From NCBI GenBank assembly GCA_001774685.1, contig MFAS01000001.1, forward strand, positions 1,025,252-1,089,251: 64,000 nt of DNA. The letters run 5' to 3'. Under the pieces are notes generated by a model. It saw only the letters and a list, made by a program, of their open reading frames with translations. It searched no databases and was not told where the DNA came from. The stretch comes from Candidatus Collierbacteria bacterium RIFOXYD2_FULL_45_13. GTDB lineage: Bacteria; Patescibacteriota; Microgenomatia; UBA1400; MFAQ01. Shown here one piece after another: positions 34,248 through 49,722 of this stretch. How positions within the stretch are numbered: the stretch's first letter is position 1; every line of letters starts with the position of its first letter. The position numbers were made by a program, and so were the translations under genes.

Positions 34248-36506
34248 CTAAACAGCAACCATCTCTTTTTCCGCTCGCTTCAGGAGTACCGCATTTGTCG
34301 CCACAATGATCGAAGACACACTCATTAGTAGCGCCGAGACTTCAGGTCGGAGCGAAATACCATAAGCCGGATACAAAACACCGGCAGCCACCGGAATCGC
34401 CAGCAGATTGTAGATCGAAGCCCAAAAAAGATTTTGTTTCATTTTTCGTACCGTCGCCTTAGAAAGTTTTATTGCCCGAAGAATATCTGCCGGATCAGAC
34501 TTCATCAGCACCACCCTGGCCGTTTCAATCGCCACGTCCGTCCCTGCTCCAATGGCGATACCAACATCCGACTGAGCCAAGGCCGGGGCATCATTCACCC
34601 CATCCCCCACCATGGCAACAAACTTGCCTTCATCTTGTAATTTTTTAACATAAGAAGCTTTCTCTCCGGGCAGTACCTCAGCAAAAATTCTCTCGATTCC
34701 TAGTTGCTTCCCAATCGCTTCCGCAGTTTTTTGATTGTCTCCGGTGATCATGGCCACTTCCAGTCCCATTTCTTTCATTCGAGTTACTGCCAGCTTGGCA
34801 TTTTCTTTTACCGGGTCAGACGCCGCCGCTACCCCCGCCAGCTTTTTATTCACCGCAAGTATCATTATCGTTTTTCCTTCAGACAAGAGCCTATCTATCT
34901 CACTCTTCAGGGTCGTTGTATCAACTTTATAATCTTTCATCAGTTTTTCGGTACCTACCAAGACATGCTTACCTGCCACCACCGCCTCCACTCCATGCCC
35001 CGCCAAGTTCTTAAATTTTTCCACCTTTGTCGAAATAGTTATTTTTCTTCTCTTCGCCTCTTCCAATATCGCCAAGCTCAACGGGTGAGATGACTTTGCT
35101 TCCACCGCTCCATCGAGACCAATAATTTCATTTTCAGTAAAGCCACTTGCCGCAATCACATCCGTAATTCTCGGCTTTCCTTCCGTTAGTGTTCCGGTCT
35201 TGTCTAGCACTACTGCTTGAATTTTTGAAACCTGTTCCAGGGTAGGCGCATCTTTGATCAAGATATTATGTTTTGCTCCCAACCCTGTCCCTACCGCTAC
35301 CGCTGTCGGTGTTGCCAGTCCGAGCGCATCCGGGCAAGCTATAACTATCGCCGAGATAGCAAAAGTCAGAGCCAGCATCAGTGGTTGACCAAGTACAAAG
35401 TACCAAACCAAGAATGTAATCAGACCTCCGCCTACCGCCACGATGACCAGATACTGAGCAAATCTATCTGCAATTTTTTGTCCTGGCGCTTTCGAGTTCT
35501 GAGCTGTCTCCACCATCTTGACGATCTGAGCGAGTGCAGTGTCTTCTCCTATTTTTGTCGCTTTGAATCGTACCGAGCCCGAAGTATTTATCGAACCGCC
35601 AATCACCTTATCACTCACATTTTTTACGACTGGTAGTGACTCCCCTGTTACGAGTGATTCGTCGATCGCTGTTTCTCCTTCGGTAATTTCTCCATCCACC
35701 GGCACTTTGTCCCCGGGTTTCAGAATCAGAATGTCGCCAAGTCTTACTTCAGATGTTGCTATCAGAGATTCTTTTCCGTTCTTCCACAGTCTGGCTTGAG
35801 GTGGCACCAGATCAAAAAGTGCTTGGAGGGCATCAGTCGTCCCTCTTCGGCTTTTCATCTCCATCCAGTGGCCAAACAAAACAAAGGTGGTGAGCATGGC
35901 TGCCGCTTCATAAAAAGACTCCTCACTCCCCAGCAGTGTGAGCACCACACTAAAAGCATAAGCCGCTGTTATACCTACAGCGATGAGCACCGCCATGTTT
36001 AATGCCTTGGCTTGTAATGCCTTGTAAGTAGAGTACAGAAAAATCCAGCCGGAATAAAAATAAACCGGTGTAGTTAAGAAGAACATTATCCAGCTCGCAG
36101 AAATCGGCATCGGCAGCTTCAATCCAAATATATTTGTTCCGAGAGGAGAATAAGCCACTATCGGTATGGTCAAAAGAAGGGACACAAAAAATTTATTTCG
36201 AATATCTTCTTCCATCATCTTCGCCATTTCCCGGCCGGCCAATCCGGTGTGTTCCATTCCCATCGCCATGGTCATACTCATTTTAAATTTTTCCCAAAAT
36301 GACATTTTTACACCGGGCTTCATCTCATGCTCCATCACCTGGTCACCATGACCCTTTTTATTGTGGTCCATTTTCATCTCCCCACCTGCAGGGCCTGGCC
36401 CTGCAGGCTTGTCATGTTTCATCACAAGCTCCATTCCGCACTTGGGGCACTTCCCTGGTTTGTCTAAGATAACCTCTGTGTGCATCGGACAGGTGTAGTT
36501 CATCAT
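34248..36506 (-). CDS. copA: Heavy-metal (Cu-type) P1B-ATPase with N-terminal CPxH/CxxC metal-binding (HMBD-like) domain, Met/His-rich stretch and atypical CPD transmembrane motif
   Basis: N-terminus YTCPMHTEV...KCPKCGMEL; MxM/His-rich segment; TGES (LVTGESLPV), DKTGTLT, GDGVNDAPAL. Ion-pathway motif IACPDALGLATP (CPD, verified on the DNA). The REP palindrome is inserted in frame at 36385-36407 and encodes PAGPGPAG. Confidence 0.85.
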   Translation of the reverse strand: MMNYTCPMHTEVILDKPGKCPKCGMELVMKHDKPAGPGPAGGEMKMDHNKKGHGDQVMEHEMKPGVKMSFWEKFKMSMTMAMGMEHTGLAGREMAKMMEEDIRNKFFVSLLLTIPIVAYSPLGTNIFGLKLPMPISASWIMFFLTTPVYFYSGWIFLYSTYKALQAKALNMAVLIAVGITAAYAFSVVLTLLGSEESFYEAAAMLTTFVLFGHWMEMKSRRGTTDALQALFDLVPPQARLWKNGKESLIATSEVRLGDILILKPGDKVPVDGEITEGETAIDESLVTGESLPVVKNVSDKVIGGSINTSGSVRFKATKIGEDTALAQIVKMVETAQNSKAPGQKIADRFAQYLVIVAVGGGLITFLVWYFVLGQPLMLALTFAISAIVIACPDALGLATPTAVAVGTGLGAKHNILIKDAPTLEQVSKIQAVVLDKTGTLTEGKPRITDVIAASGFTENEIIGLDGAVEAKSSHPLSLAILEEAKRRKITISTKVEKFKNLAGHGVEAVVAGKHVLVGTEKLMKDYKVDTTTLKSEIDRLLSEGKTIMILAVNKKLAGVAAASDPVKENAKLAVTRMKEMGLEVAMITGDNQKTAEAIGKQLGIERIFAEVLPGEKASYVKKLQDEGKFVAMVGDGVNDAPALAQSDVGIAIGAGTDVAIETARVVLMKSDPADILRAIKLSKATVRKMKQNLFWASIYNLLAIPVAAGVLYPAYGISLRPEVSALLMSVSSIIVATNAVLLKRAEKEMVAV
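36385..36407. repeat. REP-like 23-bp palindrome CCTGCAGGGCCTGGCCCTGCAGG, in frame inside copA (encodes PAGPGPAG)
   Basis: Exact copy of the palindrome found four times around the RAYT gene. Confidence 0.9.
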
Positions 36507-36580
36507 TTCATTTTATCCTTTTTCAAATATTTTGGTCTCTTCCCAATTTACTCCAAATCAACTACAATTTGTAGTAGCTT

Positions 36581-36889
36581 ATGAAAAAAGCTATTGGCAC
36601 TATCTTTCCATTTCTAATAATTCATCTCATTTGCTGCGGCAGTATTCTTCTGTTTCTTATCAGTTCCGGCTATTTATTACTACTTTCCAACGAAAGTCAA
36701 AACAAATGGTTTCTCCTCCCCAGCCTTCTCGCTCTTTTCCTTGCGTGGCGGGAACTAAACAAAATTGAACAAAAACCTTGGAAGATACTACTAACCGTTA
36801 TTATTTATCTGATCATCAGTTACATTTTTATTACTTATTTATTCATCCCTTGGTGGATACCGGGCTATGAAGGTGGACCATTACTCTAA
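36581..36889 (+). CDS. MerT-like heavy-metal transport membrane protein
   Basis: First TM carries a vicinal Cys pair (HLICCGSILLFLISSG), and ...SLLALFLAWRELNK resembles MerT (...ACCLGPL... / ...ALFFAWRRIYR). 102 aa, 3 TM. Confidence 0.55.
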   Translation: MKKAIGTIFPFLIIHLICCGSILLFLISSGYLLLLSNESQNKWFLLPSLLALFLAWRELNKIEQKPWKILLTVIIYLIISYIFITYLFIPWWIPGYEGGPLL

Positions 36890-37672: not shown

Positions 37673-38056
37673 TTATTTACTTTCGTCAATAATCCCTCTA
37701 ATTACTGCATCAACCTCATCAGGCAGATTGCCCAGATCGGCCTCAGGAAAAAATTGAGGCAAAATGATCGGTCTCATCCCTGAAATATACGTCGCTCCAT
37801 CCTTCCGGTAGACATTTATCTTACATGGCAGACAAAGACCCATTTTAATGTCCGCTTGTAGTACCGCGTAAGCACTTTTGGCATTACAGATCTCAATAAT
37901 CTTCAAAGGCTCAATTTCCAAGCCTTTTTCTTTCAAGGTTTCAGCTACATCGTGAATATAAAGCACCCTAAAACCAGCCTTCAGTGTCTCCCGCTCAACC
38001 GCACCGACCGCTTCGTCAAATGATTTTTTTGTAGTAACAGTGTAATCAAAATTCAT
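37673..38056 (-). CDS. DUF302 domain protein
   Basis: 127 aa. The pattern ...ICNAKSAYAVLQADIKMGLCLPCKINVYRKDGATYI fits DUF302. Confidence 0.6.
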   Translation of the reverse strand: MNFDYTVTTKKSFDEAVGAVERETLKAGFRVLYIHDVAETLKEKGLEIEPLKIIEICNAKSAYAVLQADIKMGLCLPCKINVYRKDGATYISGMRPIILPQFFPEADLGNLPDEVDAVIRGIIDESK

Positions 38057-38121
38057 AAAAATTATTAACTAATAACAACCATAACTTTATCACCTTCAGT
38101 CTTTTGTCACAGGCCTGCAGT

Positions 38122-38520
38122 CTATGGAACATTTACCACAAAGTCCTTGTTTTTAGTGCTTCCCTCCGGCATGCTTGCTGTGATACGGACACGCCAAGGT
38201 CCTTGCATCGAAAGATTTCCGGTGACTATGTATCGCCCTTTGCCCTGAGAGGTCGCGGTTGCTCGCTGGGTACCCATATTCATCGTGGTCATATTTAGAT
38301 CAAATGACACTGTGGCATTGTCAACAGGCTTACCGTCCGCACCCCTAACATTAATGATAAAAGTTGCTTGTCCAGGTTGTAATGGATTTGGATCGGTAGT
38401 AAGAGAAATCACTTCGCTATTGGTAGTCGCACCCAAAACCGAAGATTTTACCTTCCAACTCATGACACCAATTAACCCTACTGCAATTACAAACATCGTT
38501 AACAATATTTTATTGCTCAT
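38122..38520 (-). CDS. YtkA/FixH-like secreted Ig-fold protein (possible Cu-binding)
   Basis: Signal/anchor helix, then a ~100-aa beta domain (...GKGRYIVTGNLSMQGPWRVRITAS) resembling YtkA-family copper-associated lipoproteins. Confidence 0.45.
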   Translation of the reverse strand: MSNKILLTMFVIAVGLIGVMSWKVKSSVLGATTNSEVISLTTDPNPLQPGQATFIINVRGADGKPVDNATVSFDLNMTTMNMGTQRATATSQGKGRYIVTGNLSMQGPWRVRITASMPEGSTKNKDFVVNVP

Positions 38521-38528
38521 CTTTATAT

Positions 38529-39014
38529 TTATTTTTTATAATTAACCACACACGATGAATTTCGACTTCTTATAAGCACAAAAAGAGAAACCGATAGGAG
38601 AAATATAGACAAGTAAGACAGTTCCGCTCCCCGATAAGGTAAATAAACGAGAGAACCACCGAGTCCTAGTAATGACAATATTGGCAGTCCGCAAGCCACA
38701 CACCCACTCCCCACAATTCCCAATAAAGAATTTCCACCCACCACTACTTGCAGCTTATCAAATTTATTAAGGACCACGATCTTCTCAAAAAGCAAACTAA
38801 GATTCGCACCAGTTAAGACCGCGATCAAAAACAAAATGACCAGTCCAGATAAAGTCATTGATGTCCACATACCCTGAATTAAAGCAAACAGGATCTGAAC
38901 TTTGTAACCAATTCCATAGCTACCTATCAAAGTATCTCTGGCCAAGCTACTATTCATCAGCAGGGTGACAAACAGTAGATAAAGACTGGAAATGGTAACA
39001 ATTGAGGCAAACAC
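38529..39014 (-). CDS. Polytopic membrane protein with intramembrane CxxC (GSGCVACG), putative thiol-disulfide oxidoreductase partner of DsbA (DsbB/VKOR-like role)
   Basis: 161 aa with 4-5 TM, a CVAC motif in a helix, and a position immediately downstream of the DsbA-like gene with a 3-nt gap. Confidence 0.4.
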   Translation of the reverse strand: MFASIVTISSLYLLFVTLLMNSSLARDTLIGSYGIGYKVQILFALIQGMWTSMTLSGLVILFLIAVLTGANLSLLFEKIVVLNKFDKLQVVVGGNSLLGIVGSGCVACGLPILSLLGLGGSLVYLPYRGAELSYLSIFLLSVSLFVLIRSRNSSCVVNYKK

Positions 39015-39016
39015 GT

Positions 39017-39805
39017 TTACTTCAGCAATTCATCAATGATGGCCTTGAAAACGCTATACGGTTGAGCACCGACGATTTTAATACCATCAATCTCGCCATT
39101 ACTTGTGGACTTACCGATAAAGAAGGTCGGCGTACCTGAGGCTCCTACCTTTGCGGCATCAGCTAAATCTTTGTCCACTTCGGTCTTAAACTCACCGGAA
39201 TCCAAACACTGCTGAAATTTACTCACGTTTAGGCCCAGTTCTTTTGCGATGACTGGTAGTTGGTCAAGAGCCAAACCTGTCCCATTGGAGGTTGTTTTAG
39301 TAAAGATCTGATCGTGATATTTGAAGTACGCCGTGTCTCCGCCTTGCTTCCTGGCACACTCAGCCGCCTCAGCTTCCTTGGGGGCGTTTTGATGGAAACC
39401 AAGAGGCAAATCACGAAACACCATCTTAACTTTTCCGGTATCGATGTAGTCTTTTTTAATTTGTGGATAAGTATCGGTAAAATATTTTTTACAGAACGGG
39501 CATTCGTAGTCCGAAAATTCAATCAAGGTCACCTTAGCCTTTTTGTCTCCCAATATCGGGTCGTCATCCACAGATACTTTTACCGGTGCGCCGCTATCTT
39601 CCGGAGCTTGTTGAGCTGGCGGCGTATTCCTACTACCAGCTCCCAATACTGGTTGACCAACACCATTTTTAAGATACTTAACCTCGGTCCAAAGCGAACC
39701 CAGAAAAAAGGCCGCCACGATTAGAAGAACCACCAATGCTGGAGCATAACTGTTATGTTTTTGGTTGGGACTCGAAATCACTTTTTTTATTTTTTCGACT
39801 GACAT
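39017..39805 (-). CDS. DsbA-family thioredoxin-like thiol:disulfide oxidoreductase (membrane-anchored)
   Basis: N-terminal TM and the CPFC active site (FSDYECPFCKKYF). DsbA fold pattern with a C-terminal ...GTPTFFIG (cis-Pro loop). Confidence 0.8.
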   Translation of the reverse strand: MSVEKIKKVISSPNQKHNSYAPALVVLLIVAAFFLGSLWTEVKYLKNGVGQPVLGAGSRNTPPAQQAPEDSGAPVKVSVDDDPILGDKKAKVTLIEFSDYECPFCKKYFTDTYPQIKKDYIDTGKVKMVFRDLPLGFHQNAPKEAEAAECARKQGGDTAYFKYHDQIFTKTTSNGTGLALDQLPVIAKELGLNVSKFQQCLDSGEFKTEVDKDLADAAKVGASGTPTFFIGKSTSNGEIDGIKIVGAQPYSVFKAIIDELLK

Positions 39806-39898
39806 ATATTTTGGATGTAACTAATAAACAATTACCCTACTACAAGTGTAGTAAGGAAATCAACAATTGTCAACAGAGGGTGTTGAATAACTTCGTCT

Positions 39899-39922
39899 TG
39901 TCATCCTCGCGAATGCGGGGAT
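39899..39922 (+). repeat. 24-nt direct repeat GTCATCCTCGCGAATGCGGGGATC (hairpin-forming), copy 1. A second hairpin, ATTCCCGATCAGGTCGGGAAT, sits at 39937-39957
   Basis: Identical 24-mer recurs at 41409-41432. Both are followed by similar AT-rich ATA.AAATAAG sequence. Confidence 0.8.
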
Positions 39923-40008
39923 CTATATAAATAAGTTCCAGATGGATTCCCGATCAGGTCGGGAATGACAAATAAATGCATTATTCAACGGTCTCGTCAA
40001 CACCAATT

Positions 40009-40959
40009 TTAGATATGGGAAAATAAAGCCTCCACCACCTTTGATTCACAGATGTTTGTACAGTTTTTATCCTTTGAACACAAAAGAATGGCGTCTCCGC
40101 CACCATTGTGATATTCAAATGCAGTAACTTGGCTGAGAGATAACCCCACCAGAACTACCAGGGAGACAAGGCTGACGACAATGTTAGTTACCGGAGATCT
40201 CCTTCTCTCGACTTTTTGATTAACCAATTTTTTAACTCTATACTCCAAAGTATCCCATTCTCCCAAAGAAGGGGCAAAATTAAAGGTATTTTTGTGGTCA
40301 TGGCTCAGCAGTTTTTTTAGTACCGATATTAATGATTTAGAATTTTTCATCCCCCTTATAGCCGCCCTATCAGCCTCAACCTCATTCAAAATGCGATATC
40401 TTTTTGAAACATCCGAAATAACTGGAAAGAATGGAAACATCGTTTGCACGACGGAAGCAAAAAGGCAAGTAAAAGCATCTTTGTTTTCTAGATGGTATCT
40501 TTCGTGTCTCATTACCGCTTCTAATTCAATCTCAGAAAGAATATTAACCAAACCTGTAGACACATAAATCTTAGTATTAATAAAACCAAAACAAAAAGCA
40601 GAGGGGTGATCACTCAAATAAACAGATAGCTTGTTTTGAAGACCTAGTTTTTTAGCCATCCTTTTAATTACAGGGCTTCGAACAGTTGATGCAGACAGAT
40701 CTCTGCCAATCTTCGAGGTCTTTACCATAGTCGCCACTAACTTTATAGTTATATACATAAGCATAACCAGAAACACCATCAGACTGGCTTCTCCTAAATT
40801 ATTTGGCAGTCGTATTGGCAAACCATCAATCACCTGCTGGCAGTAGTAAATCGACTGGTGAAAAAATATGAGAACATACTTCCGGAAAAGGCTTCCCAAC
40901 ATCATGCTAGAGAAAGCAAAAAAACCAATCAGAACCATGAAGTATCTATTTACTTTCAT
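40009..40959 (-). CDS. BlaR1-like M56 family zinc metalloprotease lacking a PBP sensor domain. Short Cys-rich C-terminal tail
   Basis: HExxH (MRHERYHLEN) in the M56 context with 4 TM. 316 aa, against ~600 for BlaR1. C-terminus ...LLCSKDKNCTNICESK. Overlaps the BlaI-like gene by 14 nt. Confidence 0.7.
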   Translation of the reverse strand: MKVNRYFMVLIGFFAFSSMMLGSLFRKYVLIFFHQSIYYCQQVIDGLPIRLPNNLGEASLMVFLVMLMYITIKLVATMVKTSKIGRDLSASTVRSPVIKRMAKKLGLQNKLSVYLSDHPSAFCFGFINTKIYVSTGLVNILSEIELEAVMRHERYHLENKDAFTCLFASVVQTMFPFFPVISDVSKRYRILNEVEADRAAIRGMKNSKSLISVLKKLLSHDHKNTFNFAPSLGEWDTLEYRVKKLVNQKVERRRSPVTNIVVSLVSLVVLVGLSLSQVTAFEYHNGGGDAILLCSKDKNCTNICESKVVEALFSHI

Positions 40960-41323
40960 GGGTACCCAAAAGCCTTAATAACTCTTCTCGTTTCTCTTTT
41001 TGCAAACTTTCGACTGATTTGGCAAACGAAACTGTTGCTGACTCCCCGAACGAATCAAAAAAGTTATTAAGAAAAGATTTGGCAATTTTTTTACTATATT
41101 CTTCGCTGGTGGACTTTGGAGAGAACACAAAGGCCATACCTTCGTTTCTTTTATTAACCATACCTTTTTTGTAGAGTCGGTCTAGCAGTGTTGCCACTGT
41201 TGTATAAGCCATAGGTTTGGCTTTTCCAAATTTATTCACCACATCTCGCACATGACATTTTTTAAGATCCCAAACCACAACCATCACTTCTTGCTCCAAT
41301 GGACTTAACTTTGTTTGTATCAT
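40946..41323 (-). CDS. BlaI/MecI/CopY-family winged-helix transcriptional repressor
   Basis: LSPLEQEVMVVVWD...VRDVVNKF...YTTVATLLDRLYKKGMV matches the penicillinase-repressor family fold. Confidence 0.75.
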   Translation of the reverse strand: MIQTKLSPLEQEVMVVVWDLKKCHVRDVVNKFGKAKPMAYTTVATLLDRLYKKGMVNKRNEGMAFVFSPKSTSEEYSKKIAKSFLNNFFDSFGESATVSFAKSVESLQKEKREELLRLLGTHESK

Positions 41324-41408
41324 AAGATACTACTATTGTAGTACAATTTTAAAAAGGGTAATTTTCTACAAATATTTGTTCGATGTATTACAATAATTTA
41401 TCACCCAA

Positions 41409-41432
41409 GTCATCCTCGCGAATGCGGGGATC
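41409..41432 (+). repeat. 24-nt direct repeat GTCATCCTCGCGAATGCGGGGATC, copy 2 (divergent promoter region between blaI-1 and the DUF305 gene)
   Basis: Exact match to 39899-39922. Confidence 0.8.
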
Positions 41433-41455
41433 CATAGAAATTATAAATAATAAGT

Positions 41456-42043
41456 ATGACCAAACAACCTTTTCTTTATCTCGTACTCGGTCTTCTTGCC
41501 GGCGCTCTCATCACTTCGGCATTCTTATCACCCAACAGATCAGAAACTTCGTCTGACTCCAATATCGACCGCCACTTTATCGAGCAAATGATTCCCCATC
41601 ACGAAGATGCTATCACCATGGCAAACTCCGCCCTAAAAAAATCCAAGAAATCGGAAATAAAAACTTTGGCTCAGAACATCTTAAAAAGCCAGGGTGATGA
41701 AATTGCTCAAATGACTCAGTGGTACGGCGAGTGGTTCGGAAAAGAAGTTCCCCGTGGTGCAACTCAGATGGGTACTCATGGCATGATGGGCTCTGGAAGC
41801 AGTATGCATATGGGTTTACTGGGAAACGAAACAGACATTCTTTCTCTTGACACTGCTGTAGATTTCGATAAAGAATTTATTAGACAAATGATCCCCCATC
41901 ACCAGATGGCCGTCATGATGGCAACGATGCTGGAAAACAGCACGGATAAGTCCGAAACGAAACAACTGGCCAAAAACATCATCATCGCCCAAAATAAAGA
42001 AATCACCGACATGCGATCCTGGTACTCCACTTGGTACAAATAA
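41456..42043 (+). CDS. DUF305 family protein (secreted, two internal repeats)
   Basis: Two copies of the DUF305 motif: DRHFIEQMIPHHEDAITMA and DKEFIRQMIPHHQMAVMMA. N-terminal signal/TM. Confidence 0.8.
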   Translation: MTKQPFLYLVLGLLAGALITSAFLSPNRSETSSDSNIDRHFIEQMIPHHEDAITMANSALKKSKKSEIKTLAQNILKSQGDEIAQMTQWYGEWFGKEVPRGATQMGTHGMMGSGSSMHMGLLGNETDILSLDTAVDFDKEFIRQMIPHHQMAVMMATMLENSTDKSETKQLAKNIIIAQNKEITDMRSWYSTWYK

Positions 42044-42387: not shown

Positions 42388-43071
42388 CTACTCATCTAAA
42401 TCAATCATCTCGTAATAAACTTTCTTAATATCTTCCATGTCTTGTGGATCTTCTACGAAGGATTGGTATGTATTCCTTCTATTTATTTTTGAAAAGTTTG
42501 AAAGTATCTCCTCAATCTTTACCCAATTTTGTTGAAACAATCCCAAGTAATTTCCATAACTAGAATATTTATACTCCACCAGACCTGCAGGGCCTGGCCC
42601 TGCAGGCAAAATGTCAATTGGATTCCGATGAATATATTTAGTTATATATACAAACTGATCTTCATTTTCAATCAAAACAGTCTTGTACCTGCTTTGAAAC
42701 AAACCACCTACTCGTTTGTATTTCTTATTAAAATACATCACGTACTTCAGCACTAAAGATTGCATGAATTCCGCGATACCACGATCGGTCGATTGTTTTA
42801 TCAAAAAATGGAAATGGTTGGGCATCAAGCAGTAGGCTAGCAAATCAATCTGATCATGGTAATTCTTAAGAACTTTCGATGGTGATACCTCCTGCAGGGC
42901 CTGGCCCTGCAGGATGGGCATCTCGAGATAAAATTTCATATATCCTAGGAAGACCTTGTAATCTTGCTCATCAAGAAAAATCGCCCGCTTCTCCACTCCT
43001 CGATTAAAGATATGGTAATACCCACCAGCCCCATATTCCTTTCGACTGTTTTTTTGTGGCATATACCACAA
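42388..43071 (-). CDS. IS200/IS605-family Y1 (HUH) transposase, likely REP-associated tyrosine transposase (RAYT), carrying two in-frame REP insertions
   Basis: YHIFNRGVEKRAIF...AYCLMPNHFHFLIK (HuH) ...GGLFQSRYK (catalytic Tyr). Flanked by two copies of the 23-bp palindrome and containing two more, which encode PAGPGPAG and LQGQALQE. Confidence 0.8.
   Translation of the reverse strand: MWYMPQKNSRKEYGAGGYYHIFNRGVEKRAIFLDEQDYKVFLGYMKFYLEMPILQGQALQEVSPSKVLKNYHDQIDLLAYCLMPNHFHFLIKQSTDRGIAEFMQSLVLKYVMYFNKKYKRVGGLFQSRYKTVLIENEDQFVYITKYIHRNPIDILPAGPGPAGLVEYKYSSYGNYLGLFQQNWVKIEEILSNFSKINRRNTYQSFVEDPQDMEDIKKVYYEMIDLDE
42584..42606. repeat. REP-like 23-bp palindrome, copy 2 (inside the RAYT CDS, in frame, encoding PAGPGPAG)
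   Basis: Exact copy. Confidence 0.9.
42891..42913. repeat. REP-like 23-bp palindrome, copy 3 (inside the RAYT CDS, in frame, encoding LQGQALQE)
   Basis: Exact copy. Confidence 0.9.
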
Positions 43072-43125: not shown

Positions 43126-46100
43126 TCATTTAGTTTGGTTTTGTACCAATTTAAAATAATTTTCCTTGAACTCTTTCGACACAAAGTGCATCTCATCCAG
43201 AACCGTAAAGTTCTTTTTGGCTACCCCGGCAACTAGCACATCACTGCCAAAGAGTCCGGTTATTCTATCTTGGTTGTTTGTAAACAGTTTCTCCTTCTTC
43301 ATCATGGCTGCTTCATTGTAACCAATATAAATCGGCAGGAATCTCTTACCTTCAATGTTGTAACTCAGCTTATACGGATCCACTATTCCCTTAAGCTGTT
43401 CAGGAGTATTCTTCCCGTCCAGAATGTAGAACAGTTTCAGCTCATCATAAGGAGTCTGGGCTACGACCAGGTCAGATCCGTCGACTTTAGCAAATGCCTC
43501 TTTACCCATCAAGTGATACTCGTCCAAAATTGTATTGGTAGGAGCTAGGATTCCCGCTATTCTTACCTTGGGCACTCCAAAGAAGTTATCGATAGTGTCA
43601 CCGACTTTTCCAAATAATTTTTCTTCTCTCATCATCTCGGCCTCCTTACTACCAATCACGATTCCCGGAACTTCACCCGACATATCCAAACCGCCCTCGG
43701 CTACTTTAATGTTTCCATTCACCGTACCGGCACTCAAGAACATCTTTGTCTGTCCTTCCTCAGTAATCAGCACCCTTGATTCTCCTGCAGTCAAAAGCTG
43801 AACTATCAAAGTATTTATTCCCGGCTGCGTCTGGGCATAAGTCTTCACCACACCCATATTTTCTTTTGTCGAGATCGTGGCAAACTGCCAGAAGATAAAC
43901 AGGAAGGCGGCGGTCATCACTACCGGAGCCAGTTTTGATAACAGGTTCCATCCCTTCGGATTAAATCTTTTTAACACTAGTGAGTTACTTACGACCGACA
44001 CGGACGACAGTGTCATGGCCAGTCCCGCCAGCTCCGGTTTGAGTATCAGACCAATTCCGGCAAAGATTCTGGCGGCCACCGGGATTCCCAGAACGTTGTA
44101 GAACAAAGCGAAGAACATGTTTTGTCTGATCTTATCGACAGTTTCTTCACTGAGTTTGATGGCTGTCAGGACTCCATTCAAATCATTGTTCATAATGATT
44201 ATTCCACCGGACTCCAGAGCAATGTCCGCGCCTGACGCCATGGCAATCCCCAGATCGGCCTGCACCAAAGCGGGTGAGTCATTGATTCCGTCCCCCACCA
44301 TCGCCACGGTTTTACCCAGCCCTTGAAGTTTTTTAACTTCCTCGGCCTTATTCTGTGGCAACACTTCTGCGAGCACGTTGGTAATACCTATCTGCTTGGC
44401 AATCGCATTCGCTGTCCTTCGGTTATCCCCCGTGATCATGTAAACTTCAATCCCTTTGTCTTGTAGTTTTTTGACTACTTCGGCAGTGGATTCTTTTACC
44501 TGATCTGCGACCGCGATAATTCCTAAGATCTGTTCTTTGTTGGCAATCAGCATGGCTGTCTTACCATCTTCTTCCAGTCTTTCCAGATCCATAAAGGAGA
44601 AGGCTTGGACTTTCTTCGACTCCATCAGTCTTCTGTTGCCGATATAGTAAGTCTGTCCGGCAATGACGGCTTCTACTCCGTGTCCCGGAATTGCTTGGAA
44701 GGATTCCACGGGAGTTTGCAAATCCACTGAAGAGATTCTTGTCTTGCAGTAATCCACAATGGCAGCTGCCAGTGGATGTTCCGACTTGGCTTCGACAGCA
44801 TTCAGCACCGTCAAGATTTCCTGTTCGGCTTTATTGGAATAATTAATAAAGTTAGTCACTTCCGGTTTCCCTTTTGTCAGAGTTCCCGTTTTATCAAACA
44901 CAATCGCGTCAATCTTGCAGGCCGTCTCCAGAGGCTCTCCGCCTTTGATTAATATTCCCAGCTCCGCACCCTTACCTGTCGCCACCATAATGGCTGTTGG
45001 TGTCGCAAGACCCAAAGCGCATGGGCAAGCGATCACAATCACCGACACAAAGGCCAGCAGGGCAAAGGTTAGTGGCATGCCGAGAAGAAAGTACCACACC
45101 GCAAAAGTCAGCAGAGCGATACCAATCACGACCGGGACAAAGATAGCTGAGATTTTGTCGGCAAATCCTTGTATCGGAGCTTTTGATCCCTGCGCATCTT
45201 CAATCAGTCTCACAATCTGAGAAAGAACCGTATCGGCACCGACTTTACTTACCTGGAACTCAAAACTACCTGTTTTATTAATTGTGGCGGTATACACTTT
45301 ACTTCCCATCTGTTTCTCCACCGGAATACTTTCCCCTGTTAGAGCCGACTCATCTACCGCACTATTGCCGGTCACAATCACGCCATCGACCGGTACTCTT
45401 TCGCCGGGCCGGACCAGAACAATATCACCCACTACTACCTTTTCTATCGGCAGATCCTCAGGCATTCCATTACGCATGACTCTCGCGGTTTTAGGAGCCA
45501 GCCCCATCAATTTCTCGATCGCCTGTGAGGTTCGCCCTTTAGCCTTGGCCTCTAGCCACTTTCCAAGTGCCACAAAGGTAATTAGTAATGCCGCTACTTC
45601 GAAGTACAAATTCCCGATCTTCATTCCGTTTAGTCCATAAATCGATCCGGTTTCCACTGTAAACTTCAAAAACTCAAGCAGACTATATACATAGGCTGTC
45701 AGTGTTCCGATAGCGATCAAACTATCCATGCTAAAGGTTTTCATTTTTAAAGCCGAAATTGCCCCACGAATAAAGTTATTACCTACCCAAAACTGAACGG
45801 GGGTCGCAAGCACCAAAGAGATAATTCCACTGATTGGCATAATTACTTTGGCAAAGGGAAGTCCTGCCACAAAGTCATAGATCATAAAACCCACCATCGG
45901 TAAACTTAAAATTAATCCGGTGAGAAACTTCCTTCCCCAATACCTAATCTCCAAAGATCTTTTTTCGTTTTCACTTACTCCGGCACTCTCTTCGGGCAGT
46001 GTTGCGGTATAGCCGGTTCTTTTTACCGCTTCTTTAAGCTCACTTGGACTAACCGCCAGAGATTGATATTTTATTCTGGCTTTACTGGTCGCAAAGTTAA

Positions 46101-46533
46101 CATTCGCTTCGGTAACTCCTTTAGTTTTCACTAGTGATCTTTCAATCAGTCCGGCGCAACTGGAACAATGCATCCCTGAGATATTTAGGTAAGCAATCTG
46201 ACTATCCGACTTTTCCTCTATCATTGTCTCGCGACTTGGCTGGACCATATCAACGATTTCACTATCTAGAGTTTTTGAGTTTTTGAGTTCTTGAGTTTTC
46301 TGTATTCCGTTCCCCGTGATCGACGTCGCCGTATACCCTGCTTCCTTAATGTTTTCAATCAGTTTATCTTCCGTAATTGCCTTCGGATTGTATTCCACGT
46401 CCACCTGTTTTGTCGCTAGTAATGCGTTAACAGACTTCACTCCTTTTAGTCCTTTAAGATTCAAAGAAATGAGTTTTGGGCAGGACTCGCAGTGCATGTC
46501 GGCAACTGCAAATGAAGTTTGTTTATAGTTCAT
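43126..46533 (-). CDS. copA: Cu+-exporting P1B-1 ATPase with two N-terminal HMA domains and an unusual ~330-aa C-terminal extension containing an internal duplication
   Basis: HMA1 [11 protein letters not shown] and HMA2 [11 protein letters not shown]; TGES (ALTGESIPV); CPC ([12 protein letters not shown]); DKTGTLT; [10 protein letters not shown]. After the last TM there is a ~330-aa tail with two similar ~50-aa segments (…[24 protein letters not shown]… and …[24 protein letters not shown]…). Confidence 0.85.
46263..46298. repeat. GAGTTTTT/AAAAACTC octamer tandem repeat (x4), in frame in the copA HMA1-HMA2 linker (encodes [12 protein letters not shown])
   Basis: The same tandem octamer recurs at 56764-56799 and 60468-60495. 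Confidence 0.7.
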
Positions 46534-46538
46534 ATTTT

Positions 46539-46757
46539 TTATTTTGTAACACTGGCTGCGTAACCGGTTTCCTCAATTGCGCTAATTATTAACTCAGGAG
46601 ACACTTTTTCGGTATGGCTGACAATAACCGTTTTGTCCTTCAAGGAAGCGTTAGAACTTACCACACCCGGTATCTCTTCCAAGGTAATATTGATTAATTT
46701 TGGACACGACTCGCAGTGCATGTCCGGAACCGAGAACTTGATTGTTTTTGTACTCAT
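46539..46757 (-). CDS. copZ: HMA-domain metallochaperone (CopZ-like)
   Basis: 72 aa with [11 protein letters not shown], the same variant motif as HMA1 of the adjacent ATPase. Confidence 0.8.
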
Positions 46758-46826: not shown

Positions 46827-48362
46827 TTATTTATTTCCTCCACAAGATCCCGTACCACTACCTCCACAACCACACCCTTTCGCTCCGGAACCGACGGGCT
46901 CTGTGACTGTCCCCACCGAACCCTGACTATCCACTACCTCGATCGTCCCCGAAACCATACCCATCCAGCAGGTAAACTTGTAGACACCAACTTTTGCTGG
47001 TGTAAACTCTCTTGTTGAGACCTGTCCTGGAATCAAATCAATCTGTCCTTCAAACAGCTTAGAAATAATGGCATTGGTACATCCGCTGGTGCCGGTATCG
47101 GTAACTTCCATAATGGTTGGAACTCCAACTCTAATCTGAAAGCGGTTAGGTGAGTATCCTCTTGCCGATGCTTCCATTTTGATAACTTGCTTTCCCCCCA
47201 CCATCGGCACCAGATTTATTACTCCTGCTGTTGTGGTCCTTCCCAAGATTTGTCTTGTTCCAATTCCGGCAATCACATCTCCGACATTGGTAAGTCCAAG
47301 CACCGAGAGCTGGCTGTTAACATTAAAAAGTGAGAAAGCAAGCACCAAAATCCCCGCCAGAGTCGAAAAGTTCTTCGAAGAGTTTTTATCAGCCAACATC
47401 TTGGTACTCCCTAGTCCAATGGCCAAAAGACCAGGAACTGTCCCAAGTGCAAAGAGACCCATTATCAGAGCTCCTTGCACCGGTGATCCCGAGGCTAAGG
47501 CCAACGCCTGGGCCGTTACCGTAAATCCACAAGGTAAGAAGAATGTTAAAGCACCCATAAATAAAGGTGACAGTTTTCCTTGAAAATTATTTTCATCCGA
47601 GACACTTCTAGTAATTGATTTTGGTAATCTAAACTGGAACTTTTGCACTGCTTTTACCCCAAGCATCTGCAAACCAAGAACAATCATCACCACAGAAACC
47701 GCTATTACGAGCATCGCAGAAAAAGACGGAGACAAGCGGAAGAAGTTACCCACAAAACCAAGAATCGCTCCAAAGAAACCATATCCGGCCACACGCCCAA
47801 TGTTAAACAATATATGCGGTTCTGACTTTGTCGCTAGGGAATCGTTCTCACTATATTTAGACATCCACTGCTTAGACATCGATAACACCAAACTGCCTAC
47901 CAAAGCCGCACAGCTGGAAACCCCAGCTAGCAACCCAAAAAGGAAAAAGACCGGCAAAGCCGATTGAGAGTTTACGGAAACTAGTGAGGCAAACCCAGTC
48001 TTTTGGAGTATGTAGAATCCCATCAGAAATAAAGCCGCCACCATAAAAGGCACAAACCTATCATTAGGATTACCTTCATCTCTCACCTCACAAGAGATAT
48101 TTTTAGTTTTACTTTGTTTTTGAAAAGGCTCGGTTGAGAAGGCATAGCCATCCCCAGCGAAAAATCCATTCAAGAAATCAACCGATATTAGGTGATCTTT
48201 TTCCGTCTCAATACTCAGTGTTTCTTTATCCAAAGAAACATCAGCCATGATAACCCCCTCAGTTTTCTTTAGTCTCTTTTCTATGATCAGTTCACAAGAG
48301 GCACAGTGCAGACCTCTGATGTAGAAAGTAGAGACTGTCCGGTCTTCTTTGTTGCTTAACAT
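46827..48362 (-). CDS. Three-part fusion: N-terminal HMA domain + DsbD_2/TauE-like multi-TM domain (Cys in separate helices) + C-terminal Cys/Met-rich soluble domain, with a Gly/Cys-rich tail
   Basis: GLHCASCELI (HMA). Membrane domain with ...AGVSSCAALVG... and ...FFLPCGFTVTAQ.... C-terminal ...YKFTCWMGMVSGTIEVV and a GCGCGGSGTGSCGG tail. Confidence 0.65.
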   Translation of the reverse strand: MLSNKEDRTVSTFYIRGLHCASCELIIEKRLKKTEGVIMADVSLDKETLSIETEKDHLISVDFLNGFFAGDGYAFSTEPFQKQSKTKNISCEVRDEGNPNDRFVPFMVAALFLMGFYILQKTGFASLVSVNSQSALPVFFLFGLLAGVSSCAALVGSLVLSMSKQWMSKYSENDSLATKSEPHILFNIGRVAGYGFFGAILGFVGNFFRLSPSFSAMLVIAVSVVMIVLGLQMLGVKAVQKFQFRLPKSITRSVSDENNFQGKLSPLFMGALTFFLPCGFTVTAQALALASGSPVQGALIMGLFALGTVPGLLAIGLGSTKMLADKNSSKNFSTLAGILVLAFSLFNVNSQLSVLGLTNVGDVIAGIGTRQILGRTTTAGVINLVPMVGGKQVIKMEASARGYSPNRFQIRVGVPTIMEVTDTGTSGCTNAIISKLFEGQIDLIPGQVSTREFTPAKVGVYKFTCWMGMVSGTIEVVDSQGSVGTVTEPVGSGAKGCGCGGSGTGSCGGNK

Positions 48363-48406
48363 ACTACATAGTGTAGTTGGTTAAACATTCTCTGTCAAGA
48401 GGGTAT

Positions 48407-49324
48407 TCAGTGGAGCTCCAGCACCGAGGAAATAGCGGACAAACACAAGGTCAAATGAGGGCAACTGTAGAAGTTTACCTTAGTCACGAGGTAAGCAAAA
48501 ACCAACGCTCCTACCCCAGTCGAACAGGCCACGCCAAGCACCATCTTTTTATTGAGCCTCTTCCTTCCAACTAGCAGACCAATTCTCTCGCTCTGGCTAC
48601 TAAAGAAATTAATCCCGGCTAACATGGCAGTGTCTCCCCAGTTCAATCGTTTGTACAGAGCCGTAATCAGGGGCAGTCCTGTTCCCAGTCTTTCTTCGGC
48701 CTTTTTGTCGGCACACACTTCGACCAAGGTATAAAAGTAGCCAGCCAGCTTTGTCTTCCCCGGGAAACTGGGCAAAATCTTCTCAACCATTCCTACCACA
48801 GTAGTTCGCAACGGGTCTCTCGACTGGGCATGATTGAGTTCATGCAACACCATCGCTTTGAGTTCCTTAGAACCATGCATTTTGTGAAGGCTCTTAGATA
48901 TGTATATTTTTGGAGACCACAAGCCGGCCGTAAAGATCTCCCCACCAGCTGAATCGAAGAGAACTTTCTTCCCGGTTTGCGAACAGATCTTGAGTCCACC
49001 CACAAACATTCTTGTTTTTCTTACCATCTGCACCGTTTTTAAGGCAACATTCAAAGCTCGCCATATTAAAGCCAAGCTTAGTAGCCACAACCCGAGAGAT
49101 ATCCAGAGCTGAGATAAATTACCATAACTTTCGAGACTGTACCCATACTTTCTGGCGTCGAACAAATAAACTATCAACATCAGTGTCCCAGGTGAACTCT
49201 GAAAAAACACCCACAGTATCGAGGCCAAATAGATAATACCCAGAGCCAATATGGCCCAAAAGTACAGGTCCGATAATTTACTTAGTTTTCGATGATTCAT
49301 TCGATTTAGTACTATCCTCAACAT
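48407..49324 (-). CDS. BlaR1-like M56 zinc metalloprotease, second copy, sensor-less. C-terminal CPHLTLC
   Basis: HExxH (VLHELNHAQS) with 4 TM, 305 aa. Overlaps its BlaI-like partner by 47 nt. Confidence 0.7.
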   Translation of the reverse strand: MLRIVLNRMNHRKLSKLSDLYFWAILALGIIYLASILWVFFQSSPGTLMLIVYLFDARKYGYSLESYGNLSQLWISLGLWLLSLALIWRALNVALKTVQMVRKTRMFVGGLKICSQTGKKVLFDSAGGEIFTAGLWSPKIYISKSLHKMHGSKELKAMVLHELNHAQSRDPLRTTVVGMVEKILPSFPGKTKLAGYFYTLVEVCADKKAEERLGTGLPLITALYKRLNWGDTAMLAGINFFSSQSERIGLLVGRKRLNKKMVLGVACSTGVGALVFAYLVTKVNFYSCPHLTLCLSAISSVLELH

Positions 49325-49670
49325 ACTGCTTGAGTAGCTCCAGATCTCCTTTATTATTTTTCAACTCGTCTACAAACTGAGAGATCGCTAATCCCCCAAA
49401 ATCATTTACGAGGTTGCCATAGATCGCCGACAAGTTTTTCTTCACAAAAACCTCTTTTTCCAAACAAGGACAATACTCAAAGGCTTTTCCGCACATTTCC
49501 CTCTTTAGGATCTTCTTGTCAGCCATTCTTTTGAGCACCGTCATAATCGTAGTGTAGGCATGATCGCCTCCCAGCTTTCCCAAGACTTCCTGTGGTTTGA
49601 GTGGCTTTTCAGCCTCCCAGAGAATGTTCATCACCTGCTCCTCAAGCGGTCCAAATAATTTGCTTTTCAT
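49278..49670 (-). CDS. BlaI/CopY-family repressor with internal Cys cluster (CGKAFEYCPC)
   Basis: EEQVMNILWEAEKPLKPQEVL...YTTIMTVLKRMADKKIL winged-helix pattern of the BlaI family. The extra Cx6CxC is absent from classical BlaI. Confidence 0.7.
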   Translation of the reverse strand: MKSKLFGPLEEQVMNILWEAEKPLKPQEVLGKLGGDHAYTTIMTVLKRMADKKILKREMCGKAFEYCPCLEKEVFVKKNLSAIYGNLVNDFGGLAISQFVDELKNNKGDLELLKQYVEDSTKSNESSKTK

Positions 49671-49722
49671 ATACTACGTATTGTAGCATAGACTATTATA
49701 TCGTCGCCTCGAATCTACAATC

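Follow-up and report, generated by a model that had tools for sequence, protein, structure and literature searches.

The window analysed here is a stretch of 64,000 nt from Candidatus Collierbacteria bacterium RIFOXYD2_FULL_45_13, and all coordinates refer to it. Two genes on its minus strand share 14 nt of their reading frames: blaI-1 (40946-41323), which encodes a Penicillinase_R repressor of 125 aa, and M56-1 (40009-40959), which encodes a Peptidase_M56 protein of 316 aa, a BlaR1-type membrane zinc protease without the sensor. Both open reading frames and their tight overlap are exactly as an earlier, sequence-only reading of this DNA had given them. The surroundings it named (Cu-ATPase, DUF305 and DsbA genes) were all recovered by a Pfam scan of the neighbours; these include a DUF305 gene (41456-42043) and two P1B ATPase genes, copA-1 (34248-36506, minus strand) and copA-2 (43126-46533, in the operon on the copy-2 side). 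Pfam and recurrent synteny delimit a putative output operon of the pair at 37673-39805 (minus strand). It consists of a membrane-anchored, DsbA-like Thioredoxin_4 protein gene with a CPFC motif (39017-39805), a conserved CxxC membrane protein gene with CVAC (38529-39014), a YtkA gene (38122-38520) and, as a probable member, a DUF302 gene (37673-38056), all on the minus strand; Pfam identifies all but the CxxC protein, which is placed by recurrent synteny, has no Pfam, NCBIfam or PDB match and gives an AF2 model of pLDDT 64. A 24/33-nt direct repeat flanks the pair, with two occurrences in the window. It is absent from all 62 other loci and is not considered part of the system.

M56-1 scores 53.2 bits against Peptidase_M56 (cut-off 31) and 51.5 bits against Peptidase_M48. 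Its HExxH motif, H152ERYH156, is at 40492-40506, and the key residues H152ExxH156, D161, E193xxxD197 and R241 correspond to H201ExxH, D210, E242xxxD246 and R294 of BlaR1. In alignments of 97 and 112 sequences H152, E153, H156, E193, D197 and R241 are invariant, and D161 is conserved in 96-98%. The family profile matches BlaR1 in the PDB (E 5e-12), and the AF2 model (pLDDT 79) has S. aureus BlaR1 (8EXS, 8EXP) as its best solved Foldseek match. Sequence comparison thus identifies M56-1 as a member of Peptidase_M56 with an intact catalytic site. The NCBIfam model blaR1_generic gives 50 bits against a cut-off of 400, covering model positions 114-335 of 585, and the protein stops 40 residues past its final hydrophobic segment, without a penicillin-binding (SxxK) sensor domain. 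The best 150 relatives are all of 352 aa or less, so that none of these carries a sensor domain. Pfam, blaR1_generic and the end of the reading frame therefore bear out the M56 identity, the HExxH motif, the length of 316 aa and the missing penicillin-binding domain, as first proposed. The four membrane segments proposed along with them are doubtful. Family-averaged hydropathy gives three clear ones (residues 7-25, 57-79 and 258-276), and three may be the true count, as residues 28-47 are weakly hydrophobic. Two further features can be placed on BlaR1. C123, cytoplasmic and beside the active site, is 94-100% conserved and aligns with the beta-3 strand of BlaR1 that holds the substrate. BlaR1 is cleaved between S283 and F284 (PMC9834060); the counterpart of this autocleavage loop in M56-1, TFN/FAPS (the slash marks the bond), is weakly conserved, with F228 at.28-.40.

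The repressor is similarly well placed. BlaI-1 matches Penicillinase_R (PF03965) over its full length with 90.2 bits (cut-off 22.6), and its best PDB matches are S. aureus BlaI and MecI; against CopY_TcrY (TIGR02698) it reaches 47.8 bits, under the cut-off of 121.95. By these matches BlaI-1 is a predicted winged-helix repressor of the BlaI/MecI/CopY family, in agreement with the BlaI/CopY-like assignment made at the outset, and both members of the pair thus score above their HMM cut-offs. The CopY metal-binding motif CxCx4CxC is absent from BlaI-1, whose C-terminus (...LLRLLGTHESK) has no cysteine; C23 (41255-41257) is conserved in at least 80% of the repressors. S. aureus BlaI is cleaved between N101 and F102 (PMC9834060). 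Alignment with this site, LVLN101/F102AKN, predicts a scissile bond in BlaI-1 between S99 and F100, TVS/FAKS (41024-41029, minus strand), and the motif SFA.S is at least 80% conserved in about 55 aligned orthologous repressors. BlaI-1 would then be cut at S99-F100.

What stands in place of the missing sensor? The M56-1 C-terminus reads ...LLCSKDKNCTNICESKVVEALFSHI. Its tail (residues 277-316; 40012-40131, minus strand) sits where BlaR1 has the sensor domain. It begins QVTAFEYH and contains C294SKDKNC300TNIC304; with RRR ahead of the final membrane segment, it is predicted to be extracytoplasmic. The Cys-rich motif CSKDKNCTNIC, to which attention had been drawn from the sequence, is present and conserved down to about 28% identity, which is also the median identity of the 112 representatives. 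Conservation in the 97 and 112 sequences is.95 and.91 for C294,.78 and.85 for C300, and.74 and.81 for C304; among the other tail residues E282 (.80), H284 (.77) and D289 (.75) are conserved. A fourth cysteine, C40, lies in residues 26-56 (40792-40884, minus strand; RKYV...IYYC40QQ), the counterpart of the BlaR1 loop EL1. Hydropathy here is low (KD 0.63), and the segment would be either an outer loop or a weak second membrane segment. C40 is 99-100% conserved and Y38 75-90% in the same alignments. AF2 models the tail as a beta-hairpin (279-294) and then a helix (confidence 52-63, low), and puts a loop strand, 37-39, next to the tail hairpin (confidence 45-57, low). Counting against a sensory role of the tail, the CxxxC pair is missing in about 20% of orthologues and a few tails are degenerate, e.g. 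that of locus L005.

Pairs of the M56-1 type form a sizeable family of about 970 clusters, which in this analysis come only from CPR (Microgenomates-type) genome bins. Related loci were gathered by a search with a trimmed M56 alignment. The order blaI-M56-dsbA occurs in about 47 of 51 informative loci, and 55 loci with these genes come from Collier-, Gottesman-, Woese-, Roizman- and Levybacteria and WWE3. After the dsbA-like gene there follow either the CxxC membrane protein and YtkA, or DsbD_2-cupredoxin and HMA genes. Copper genes are close to the pair in 27 of 30 long loci, and P1B ATPases are usually near. The link to metal genes proposed for the window is therefore conserved and not local: it had been said that the proposal would fall if the M56 assignment failed or the pair were found in contexts unrelated to metals, and the assignment held and the metal context is kept across loci. 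Among the Pfam-scanned neighbours there is no gene for a beta-lactamase or PBP2a; the predicted operators precede the dsbA-like and copper genes instead. In some genomes CsoR adjoins copA. This counts against the reading proposed below, as the pair would not be the sole copper regulator there.

The operators themselves are prominent. A palindrome of BlaI/CopY type, aCTACAnnnTGTAGt, lies 1-10 nt ahead of blaI and just ahead of dsbA in nearly every locus. In the window the predicted operator O1, an exact palindrome with a 4-nt spacer (N4; TACTAC-TATT-GTAGTA, 41328-41343), is 4 nt 5' of the blaI-1 ATG, and by position it is the predicted autoregulation site of blaI-1. Operator O2, also N4 (TACTAC-AAGT-GTAGTA, 39838-39853), is predicted upstream of the DsbA-like gene. 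Within it lie both TACAnnTGTA, the cop box of CopY, and, from a TTGACA-17-TACACT promoter at 39845-39873 on the minus strand, the -10 hexamer. The half-sites, TACA/TGTA, are those of BlaI/MecI/CopY operators. Of 43 orthologous loci, 40 have an equivalent of O1 placed 1-10 nt ahead of blaI, and in about 45 loci a counterpart of O2 immediately precedes dsbA. By our own estimate from length and base composition, about 10 copies of CTAC-N5-GTAG would be expected in the 673 kb covered; there are 113, and they cluster right in front of blaI and dsbA. A strict search for TACAnnTGTA gave one relevant site and no enrichment; the longer palindrome, spotted by eye, was used in its place.

Further targets add to the picture. 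The palindrome precedes multicopper oxidase genes (four loci), CsoR-family repressor genes (two), and genes for a plastocyanin-like cupredoxin, a Met-rich YtkA protein, DsbD_2-cupredoxin, HMA and DUF305 proteins, and within the window copA-1 and the operon that contains copA-2. In locus L003 one palindrome precedes a LysM/M23 peptidase gene. As sites stand before multicopper oxidase, CsoR, cupredoxin, HMA and copA genes, the regulon would be one of copper and thiol functions. Of the BlaI-type operators sought from the start near copA, DUF305 and DsbD_2 genes, those of copA and DsbD_2 are present in the window and are of the N5 type, which belongs to a second pair described below. DUF305 was rejected as a clear target of copy 1 in the window, since O1 lies 22 nt upstream of its predicted -35 hexamer and does not overlap it. 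The placing of the pair in a metal-resistance island is likewise right as to the link, but the ATPases of the window bear the operator type of copy 2 and not that of copy 1, whose operators appear to link it with the DsbA-like operon instead of copA.

The genome carries two pairs, and their operators differ in spacing, N4 (copy 1) versus N5 (copy 2). BlaI-2 (49278-49670, minus strand; 130 aa, Penicillinase_R 79.2 bits) has YCPC in its wing, as do its counterparts in loci L004 and L005. M56-2 (48407-49324, minus strand) is a divergent, sensor-less protein with HELNH that scores 21.6 bits against Pfam M56, below threshold; it has a conserved family of its own. Copy 2 has independently retained a Cys/His tail, CPHxxxC...H (NFYSC288PH290LTLC294... 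ending in VLELH), and all of its 16 homologues have C288, with H290 and C294 each conserved in at least 90%. No equivalent of C123 is present in M56-2, which has FTAG. Three N5 operators are predicted: CTAC-GTATT-GTAG at 49674-49686, 4 nt 5' of the blaI-2 ATG and likewise in L004 and L005; 48364-48376, directly before an HMA-DsbD_2-cupredoxin gene and likewise in L004, L005 and L060; and 36562-36574, between copA-1 (minus) and a plus-strand ORF (36581-36889) for a small membrane protein that has a Cys-Cys pair. The operon behind the second site comprises the HMA-DsbD_2-cupredoxin gene (46827-48362), a small HMA gene (46539-46757) and copA-2 (43126-46533). We infer that BlaI-1 binds the N4 sites and BlaI-2 the N5 sites.

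How do these pairs compare with known systems? BlaR1/BlaI and MecR1/MecI of Staphylococcus and Bacillus have in common with them the protease fold and motifs, the repressor fold, an x-F bond at the cleavage position of the repressor (a candidate site here), TACA/TGTA dyad operators, autoregulation (predicted here) and adjoining genes. Unlike BlaR1 and MecR1, M56-1 lacks the SxxK domain of about 250 aa, is shorter in its N-terminal part and regulates no beta-lactamase or PBP2a gene; beta-lactam acylation cannot be the signal here. CopY/TcrY of Firmicutes shares the repressor superfamily, the cop box found in O2 and copper ATPase and chaperone targets, but CopY binds Cu(I) itself through C-terminal CxCx4CxC and works without a protease, whereas BlaI-1 has no such motif and is paired with one. 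The Scs (suppressor of copper sensitivity) and DsbC/DsbG-type systems use DsbD-like and thioredoxin-fold membrane proteins against envelope copper stress. The Scs outputs resemble the output genes here, but Scs is an output system under different regulators and has no BlaI/M56 switch. CenIR of C. difficile and PvmSR of P. aeruginosa likewise pair a sensor-less M56 protease with a BlaI-like repressor and play no part in resistance to beta-lactams; in the portions of the published accounts at hand, their regulons are of cell envelope or virulence genes, and neither a copper link nor a Cys-rich tail is reported.

The closest precedent is PetRP. In Synechocystis, PetP, a sensor-less M48/M56 protein, degrades PetR, of the BlaI/CopY family, only with copper; the authors did not decide where the metal is sensed (Garcia-Canas et al., 2021). 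The sequence-only reading held that a switch relieved by proteolysis is not established for metal islands. This is partly right, but a copper-dependent, sensor-less BlaR/BlaI switch has been known since 2021, and the present pair appears to be a variant of it. Compared by published description and not by sequence, PetR/PetP of Synechocystis sp. PCC 6803 are alike in their overlapping genes, in a repressor without the CopY Cys motif and in a membrane protease of about 300 aa without the penicillin-binding domain. They differ in regulon. That of PetRP, made up of petE, petJ and two small genes, serves to switch cofactors and not to confer resistance; the predicted one here comprises DsbA-like, DsbD_2-cupredoxin, HMA, multicopper oxidase, CsoR and copA genes, and neither petE nor petJ is among the targets. 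PetR has the site GAC-N5-GTC, as against CTAC-N4/5-GTAG here, and the ligands proposed for PetP are Met53 and Met58 in the TM2-TM3 loop, whereas the 48-56 loop of M56-1 (PIRLPNNLG) has no Met and four outer cysteines are found instead. A literature search for BlaI/BlaR1 and copper in CPR bacteria found nothing relevant, and the Cupriavidus CH34 genome paper, taken up as a lead, nowhere mentions BlaI/BlaR.

On balance, the pair is probably a BlaI/BlaR1-type two-gene switch that answers to copper or thiol stress in the envelope in place of beta-lactams. This is drawn from the families and fold, the catalytic site, synteny, the enrichment and targets of the operators, the cysteines, the Ser-Phe site of a repressor without the CopY motif, the PetRP precedent and the Cys/His tail of copy 2. 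Family membership, catalytic site, conserved cysteines, operator positions and the copper content of the predicted regulon can be read from sequence; the tail as a sensor, and metal or thiol state as its signal, are suggested by them. The mechanism envisaged is as follows. BlaI-1, bound to TACTAC-N4-GTAGTA where it overlaps the -10 hexamer or the transcription start, would shut its own promoter and that of the DsbA-like operon. M56-1 would combine a cytoplasmic zinc site with an outward module, the C40 loop and the 40-residue tail, that replaces the penicillin-binding domain and senses through the C40 loop with E282, H284, D289, C294, C300 and C304. Copper binding to the thiols, or a disulfide change driven by copper or redox state, would alter the coupling of loop and tail, in parallel with the EL1 loop and sensor domain of BlaR1, and activate the protease. 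Active M56-1 would cut BlaI-1 at S99-F100 in the dimerisation domain and the dimer would leave the DNA; derepression would then yield the DsbA-like protein, the CxxC membrane protein and YtkA, plus more repressor and protease. The DsbA-like activity could re-oxidise the sensor cysteines, a negative feedback. Copy 2 may work in the same mode via N5 operators on two copper ATPases, an HMA chaperone and the HMA-DsbD_2-cupredoxin protein.

Is the signal a metal at all? As the first output gene encodes a thiol oxidoreductase, the primary signal could be disulfide stress. The outer cysteines would then form a pure thiol-disulfide sensor that is independent of metal and reports the oxidising power of the envelope, the reduced state calling for more DsbA, with copper genes co-regulated only because copper is one source of disulfide damage. 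In about 47 of 51 loci the gene directly downstream encodes a DsbA-like thioredoxin with CPFC, and that for the CxxC membrane protein or DsbD_2 comes next; the even count of conserved outer cysteines suits two disulfides. Palindromes before multicopper oxidase, CsoR, cupredoxin, HMA and copA genes speak for copper, however, as does a precedent, PetRP, that answers to copper, and E282, H284 and D289, conserved beside the cysteines, are suited to metal binding; a metal-independent sensor is considered unlikely.

If copper is the signal, is it sensed outside? Cytoplasmic sensing of Cu(I), at C123 or in the repressor (at C23, or at YCPC in BlaI-2), would leave the outer cysteines a structural role only. 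It draws on the conservation of C123, in the substrate-binding strand by the catalytic zinc, on that of C23 and of YCPC in BlaI-2, and on the finding that PetR degradation required copper in extracts of broken cells, which no longer keep the two sides of the membrane apart. It is nevertheless improbable: one cysteine per repressor monomer makes a poor Cu(I) site, copy 2 has kept its Cys/His tail while having no equivalent of C123, and the tail cysteines are conserved as well as C123 is. A non-metal signal from the envelope or cell wall, as for CenIR or other atypical BlaIR pairs, with the copper context an effect of the genomic island, would agree with the LysM/M23 peptidase target in L003. 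The copper association, however, rests on operators and not on proximity alone, and spans distant Microgenomates lineages with 28-38% protein identity, which makes such a signal highly improbable.

Copper or thiol sensing by an outward module is thus the preferred reading, and a bolder form of it can be put forward with somewhat less than an even chance. The loop and tail with C40, C294, C300 and C304 may constitute a minimal, direct copper/thiol receptor that replaces a domain of 250 aa; in Microgenomates the switch may act as the master regulator of both copper and disulfide homeostasis in the envelope; and the paralogues may be insulated by a change in half-site spacing from 5 to 4 bp.

The majority of genomic BlaI/BlaR-like pairs are without a beta-lactam domain, and their signals are unknown. 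Four outer cysteines with nearby Glu, His and Asp offer a concrete candidate sensing site, with a defined operator and regulon, and would, if the proposal is true, give the many BlaR-type proteases classed as ‘sensor-less’ their first ligand site that can be identified. The N4/N5 split of the paralogous pairs provides a simple natural case of a way in which repressor circuits might be kept apart after duplication. To our knowledge, CPR bacteria are not culturable and have very few recognisable regulators. The circuit proposed here would count among the very few regulatory circuits described for them, and would join copper defence to extracytoplasmic disulfide chemistry in these bacteria.

The copy 1 protease, M56-1 (316 aa; 40009-40959, minus strand), matches Peptidase_M56 at 53.2 bits (cut-off 31) as well as Peptidase_M48, and its partner, the repressor BlaI-1 (125 aa; 40946-41323, minus strand), matches Penicillinase_R over its full length at 90.2 bits. 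They are members of these families, as the sequence-only reading had assigned them; both open reading frames and their lengths also stand, and the tight overlap it described amounts to 14 nt shared by the two genes. In M56-1, residues 152-156 read HERYH, and the C-terminus is QVTAFEYHNGGGDAILLCSKDKNCTNICESKVVEALFSHI. Residues H152, E153, H156, E193, D197 and R241 are invariant in the family and D161 is kept in 96-98% (97 close orthologues; 112 representatives), the counterparts in BlaR1 being H201ExxH, D210, E242xxxD246 and R294. The family profile matches residues 104-323 of S. aureus BlaR1 (E 5e-12), and BlaR1 cryo-EM structures are the best solved matches to the AF2 model (pLDDT 79, pTM 0.75). 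Is M56-1 then a beta-lactam sensor of the BlaR1/MecR1 kind? It is not. The penicillin-binding domain, already reported missing, is absent: of the 585 positions in the NCBIfam BlaR1 model just 114-335 are matched, and the score of 50 bits stays under the cut-off of 400. An exhaustive profile search with the family gave 974 clusters (50% identity) at E<=1e-30, and the best 150 of these lack a sensor domain, as all are at most 352 aa and match through to the C-terminal tail (residues 277-316 in M56-1).

The BlaR1 sensor domain attaches exactly at the position of this tail. What might the tail do? Family-averaged hydropathy gives clear membrane segments at 7-25, 57-79 and 258-276, the last preceded by RRR. 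Three of the four segments claimed earlier are clear; the fourth (28-47) is weakly hydrophobic. M56-1 may have three segments (N-terminus inside) or four (N-terminus outside, BlaR1-like), and both predicted topologies place residue 40 and the tail on the outside. Conservation was scored in 97 close orthologues and in 112 representatives (median 28% identity), and is given here in that order. It is high for C40 (.99, 1.00) and C294 (.95,.91); the other values are C300 (.78,.85), C304 (.74,.81), E282 (.80,.59), H284 (.77,.50) and D289 (.75,.46). The cytoplasmic C123 (1.00,.94) lies in the substrate-binding strand. At low confidence, AF2 models a short strand (37-39) and a tail hairpin (279-294), which could form one small sheet; such an arrangement would echo the contact between the outer loop EL1 and the sensor that transmits the signal in BlaR1. 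In L005 (7560-8900), a related locus of Ca. Collierbacteria GW2011_GWB2_45_17, the copy 1 protease tail is degenerate, without ExH or CxxxC, as is the blaI-1 operator; copy 2 is intact, and so is the N4 operator of dsbA. Copy 1 may therefore be decaying there.

Could the repressor itself be the sensor, like CopY? BlaI-1 is not a CopY: it scores under the CopY equivalog cut-off and the CxCx4CxC motif is absent. Its sole conserved cysteine is C23, which makes direct metal sensing unlikely. BlaI-1 is a candidate substrate. Its TVS99|F100AKS aligns with LVLN101|F102AKN of BlaI, where N101|F102 is the bond cut by BlaR1, and 'SFA.S' is at least 80% conserved across roughly 55 aligned orthologues. 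BlaR1 also cuts itself at an S|F bond.

The M56-1 homologues found all belong to the Microgenomates group of the CPR (Collier-, Gottesman-, Woese-, Roizman- and Levybacteria, WWE3), the closest locus being in a Candidatus Collierbacteria bin (82% identity). Across 55 genome loci, blaI lies directly 5' of the M56 gene wherever upstream sequence is present. A strict automatic count puts a DsbA-like thioredoxin gene next in at least 43 of 51 loci; allowing for ORF-calling artefacts raises the figure to about 47. After it comes a CxxC membrane protein with YtkA, or DsbD_2-cupredoxin with HMA. In the window the neighbours are DsbA/Thioredoxin_4, YtkA, DUF302, DUF305, DUF5676, two P1B ATPases, HMA and DsbD_2-cupredoxin proteins, which bears out the metal-gene surroundings described before. 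Conservation of the pair in contexts unrelated to metals, named beforehand as a refuting condition, was not borne out: of 30 loci 12 kb or longer, 27 have a copper-type gene (21 a P1B ATPase).

The link to these genes consists of regulatory sites as well as proximity. An exact 16-bp palindrome, TACTAC-N4-GTAGTA, lies just 5' of blaI-1 (41328-41343) and again just 5' of the DsbA-like gene (39838-39853; O2). CTAC-N5-GTAG occurs three times in the window, always in promoter regions: before blaI-2 (49674-49686), before the HMA-DsbD_2-cupredoxin/HMA/copA-2 operon (48364-48376) and between copA-1 and a small membrane ORF (36562-36574). The operator search before copper genes that had been proposed yielded sites at both ATPase loci and, across loci, before DUF305 and DsbD_2-cupredoxin genes. 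The N5 form occurs 113 times in 56 genome loci (673 kb), where by our estimate their length and base composition would predict ~10. Of 43 blaI genes, 40 have it 1-10 nt ahead of the start, and in about 45 instances it lies immediately upstream of dsbA. TACA/TGTA half-sites also characterise BlaI/MecI/CopY operators, as in the cop box TACAnnTGTA. The operator centre, TACAAT at blaI and TACACT at dsbA, would double as a -10 hexamer, and a TTGACA-17-TACACT promoter is predicted in the window with its -10 within O2. In about 40 loci (e.g. L010 7614-7626, L013 9029-9041) the operator ends 1-10 nt from start codons. With the start codon a few bases past the operator in most loci, blaI and often dsbA mRNAs are probably nearly leaderless in these CPR genomes.

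Operators also precede DsbD_2-cupredoxin and HMA genes, two-domain multicopper oxidases (L010, L017, L018, L037), CsoR-family repressors (L006, L051), a plastocyanin-like cupredoxin (L035), a Met-rich YtkA protein (L036), an ArsR-type regulator (L004) and a LysM/M23 peptidase (L003). Judged by its sites, the regulon covers copper and envelope thiols. Always next after the DsbA-like gene is a 161-aa membrane protein (38529-39014, minus strand; AF2 pLDDT 64) with invariant C105xxC108 (GSGCxACGLP) and C155, 164 homologues (50-87% identity) and no match in Pfam, NCBIfam or PDB; it could be a redox partner of the DsbA-like protein, a DsbB/VKOR/CcdA analogue. Divergent from copA-1, and sharing its N5 operator, is a 102-aa membrane ORF (36581-36889, plus strand) with a Cys-Cys pair (HLICCGS) and no significant family match, whose homologues adjoin copA in L015, L026 and L028. 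CopA-2 (43126-46533, minus strand; 1135 aa) has two HMA domains and ~300 extra C-terminal residues past the ATPase core, without a Pfam match; its L060 orthologue is of like length (1114 aa). The HMA-DsbD_2-cupredoxin fusion (46827-48362, minus strand) has a Gly/Cys-rich C-terminal tail, GAKGCGCGGSGTGSCGGNK, and a second, divergent DsbD_2-cupredoxin gene (49808-50863) lacks HMA.

A 33-nt direct repeat (39900-39932 and 41409-41441; 94% identical, core GTCATCCTCGCGAATGCGGGGATC, spacing 1509 nt) exactly brackets the blaI-1/M56-1 pair, with no further copies in the window or in 62 related loci, and a palindrome, ATTCCCGATCAGGTCGGGAAT (39946-39966), adjoins one copy. An IS200-like Y1 transposase gene (42388-43071, minus strand) between the DUF305/DUF5676 genes and copA-2 fits rearrangement inside the copper island.

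Why two pairs? In copy 2 (M56-2, 48407-49324; BlaI-2, 49278-49670, minus strand) the protease tail, NFYxCPHLxLC...LELH, is unlike that of M56-1 and equally conserved. The BlaI-2 wing region has a YCPC motif (C67, C69; C60 in some), kept in L004 and L005, which suggests that BlaI-2 might bind Cu(I) directly, in a way unlike that of the CopY C-terminal motif. N4 operators are confined to loci with copy 2 (the window, L004, L005, L060), where they mark blaI-1 and dsbA, N5 marking copy 2 targets; N4 is absent from the roughly 50 loci with a single pair. Half-site spacing appears to have diverged after the second pair arose, insulating both circuits, so that copy 1 would drive the DsbA-like operon and copy 2 the ATPases, chaperone and HMA-DsbD_2-cupredoxin. 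All N4 cases come from one clade, and the split could thus be a single historical event.

The literature search turned up no paper on the CPR sensor-less M56/BlaI family, and none in which a BlaI/M56 pair controls copper-resistance or Dsb genes. A beta-lactam domain is missing from most BlaIR-like pairs, and further atypical pairs are being described. In Synechocystis PetR/PetP, a sensor-less M48/M56 protease degrades a BlaI/CopY-family factor in a copper-dependent manner; to call such a mode unestablished, as was done earlier, was an overstatement. That interpretation is partly supported. The case for the architecture, the operators and the copper regulon is strong, and the signal and sensing site of M56-1 are what we infer. 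The putative CPR switch would work like PetRP and BlaIR.
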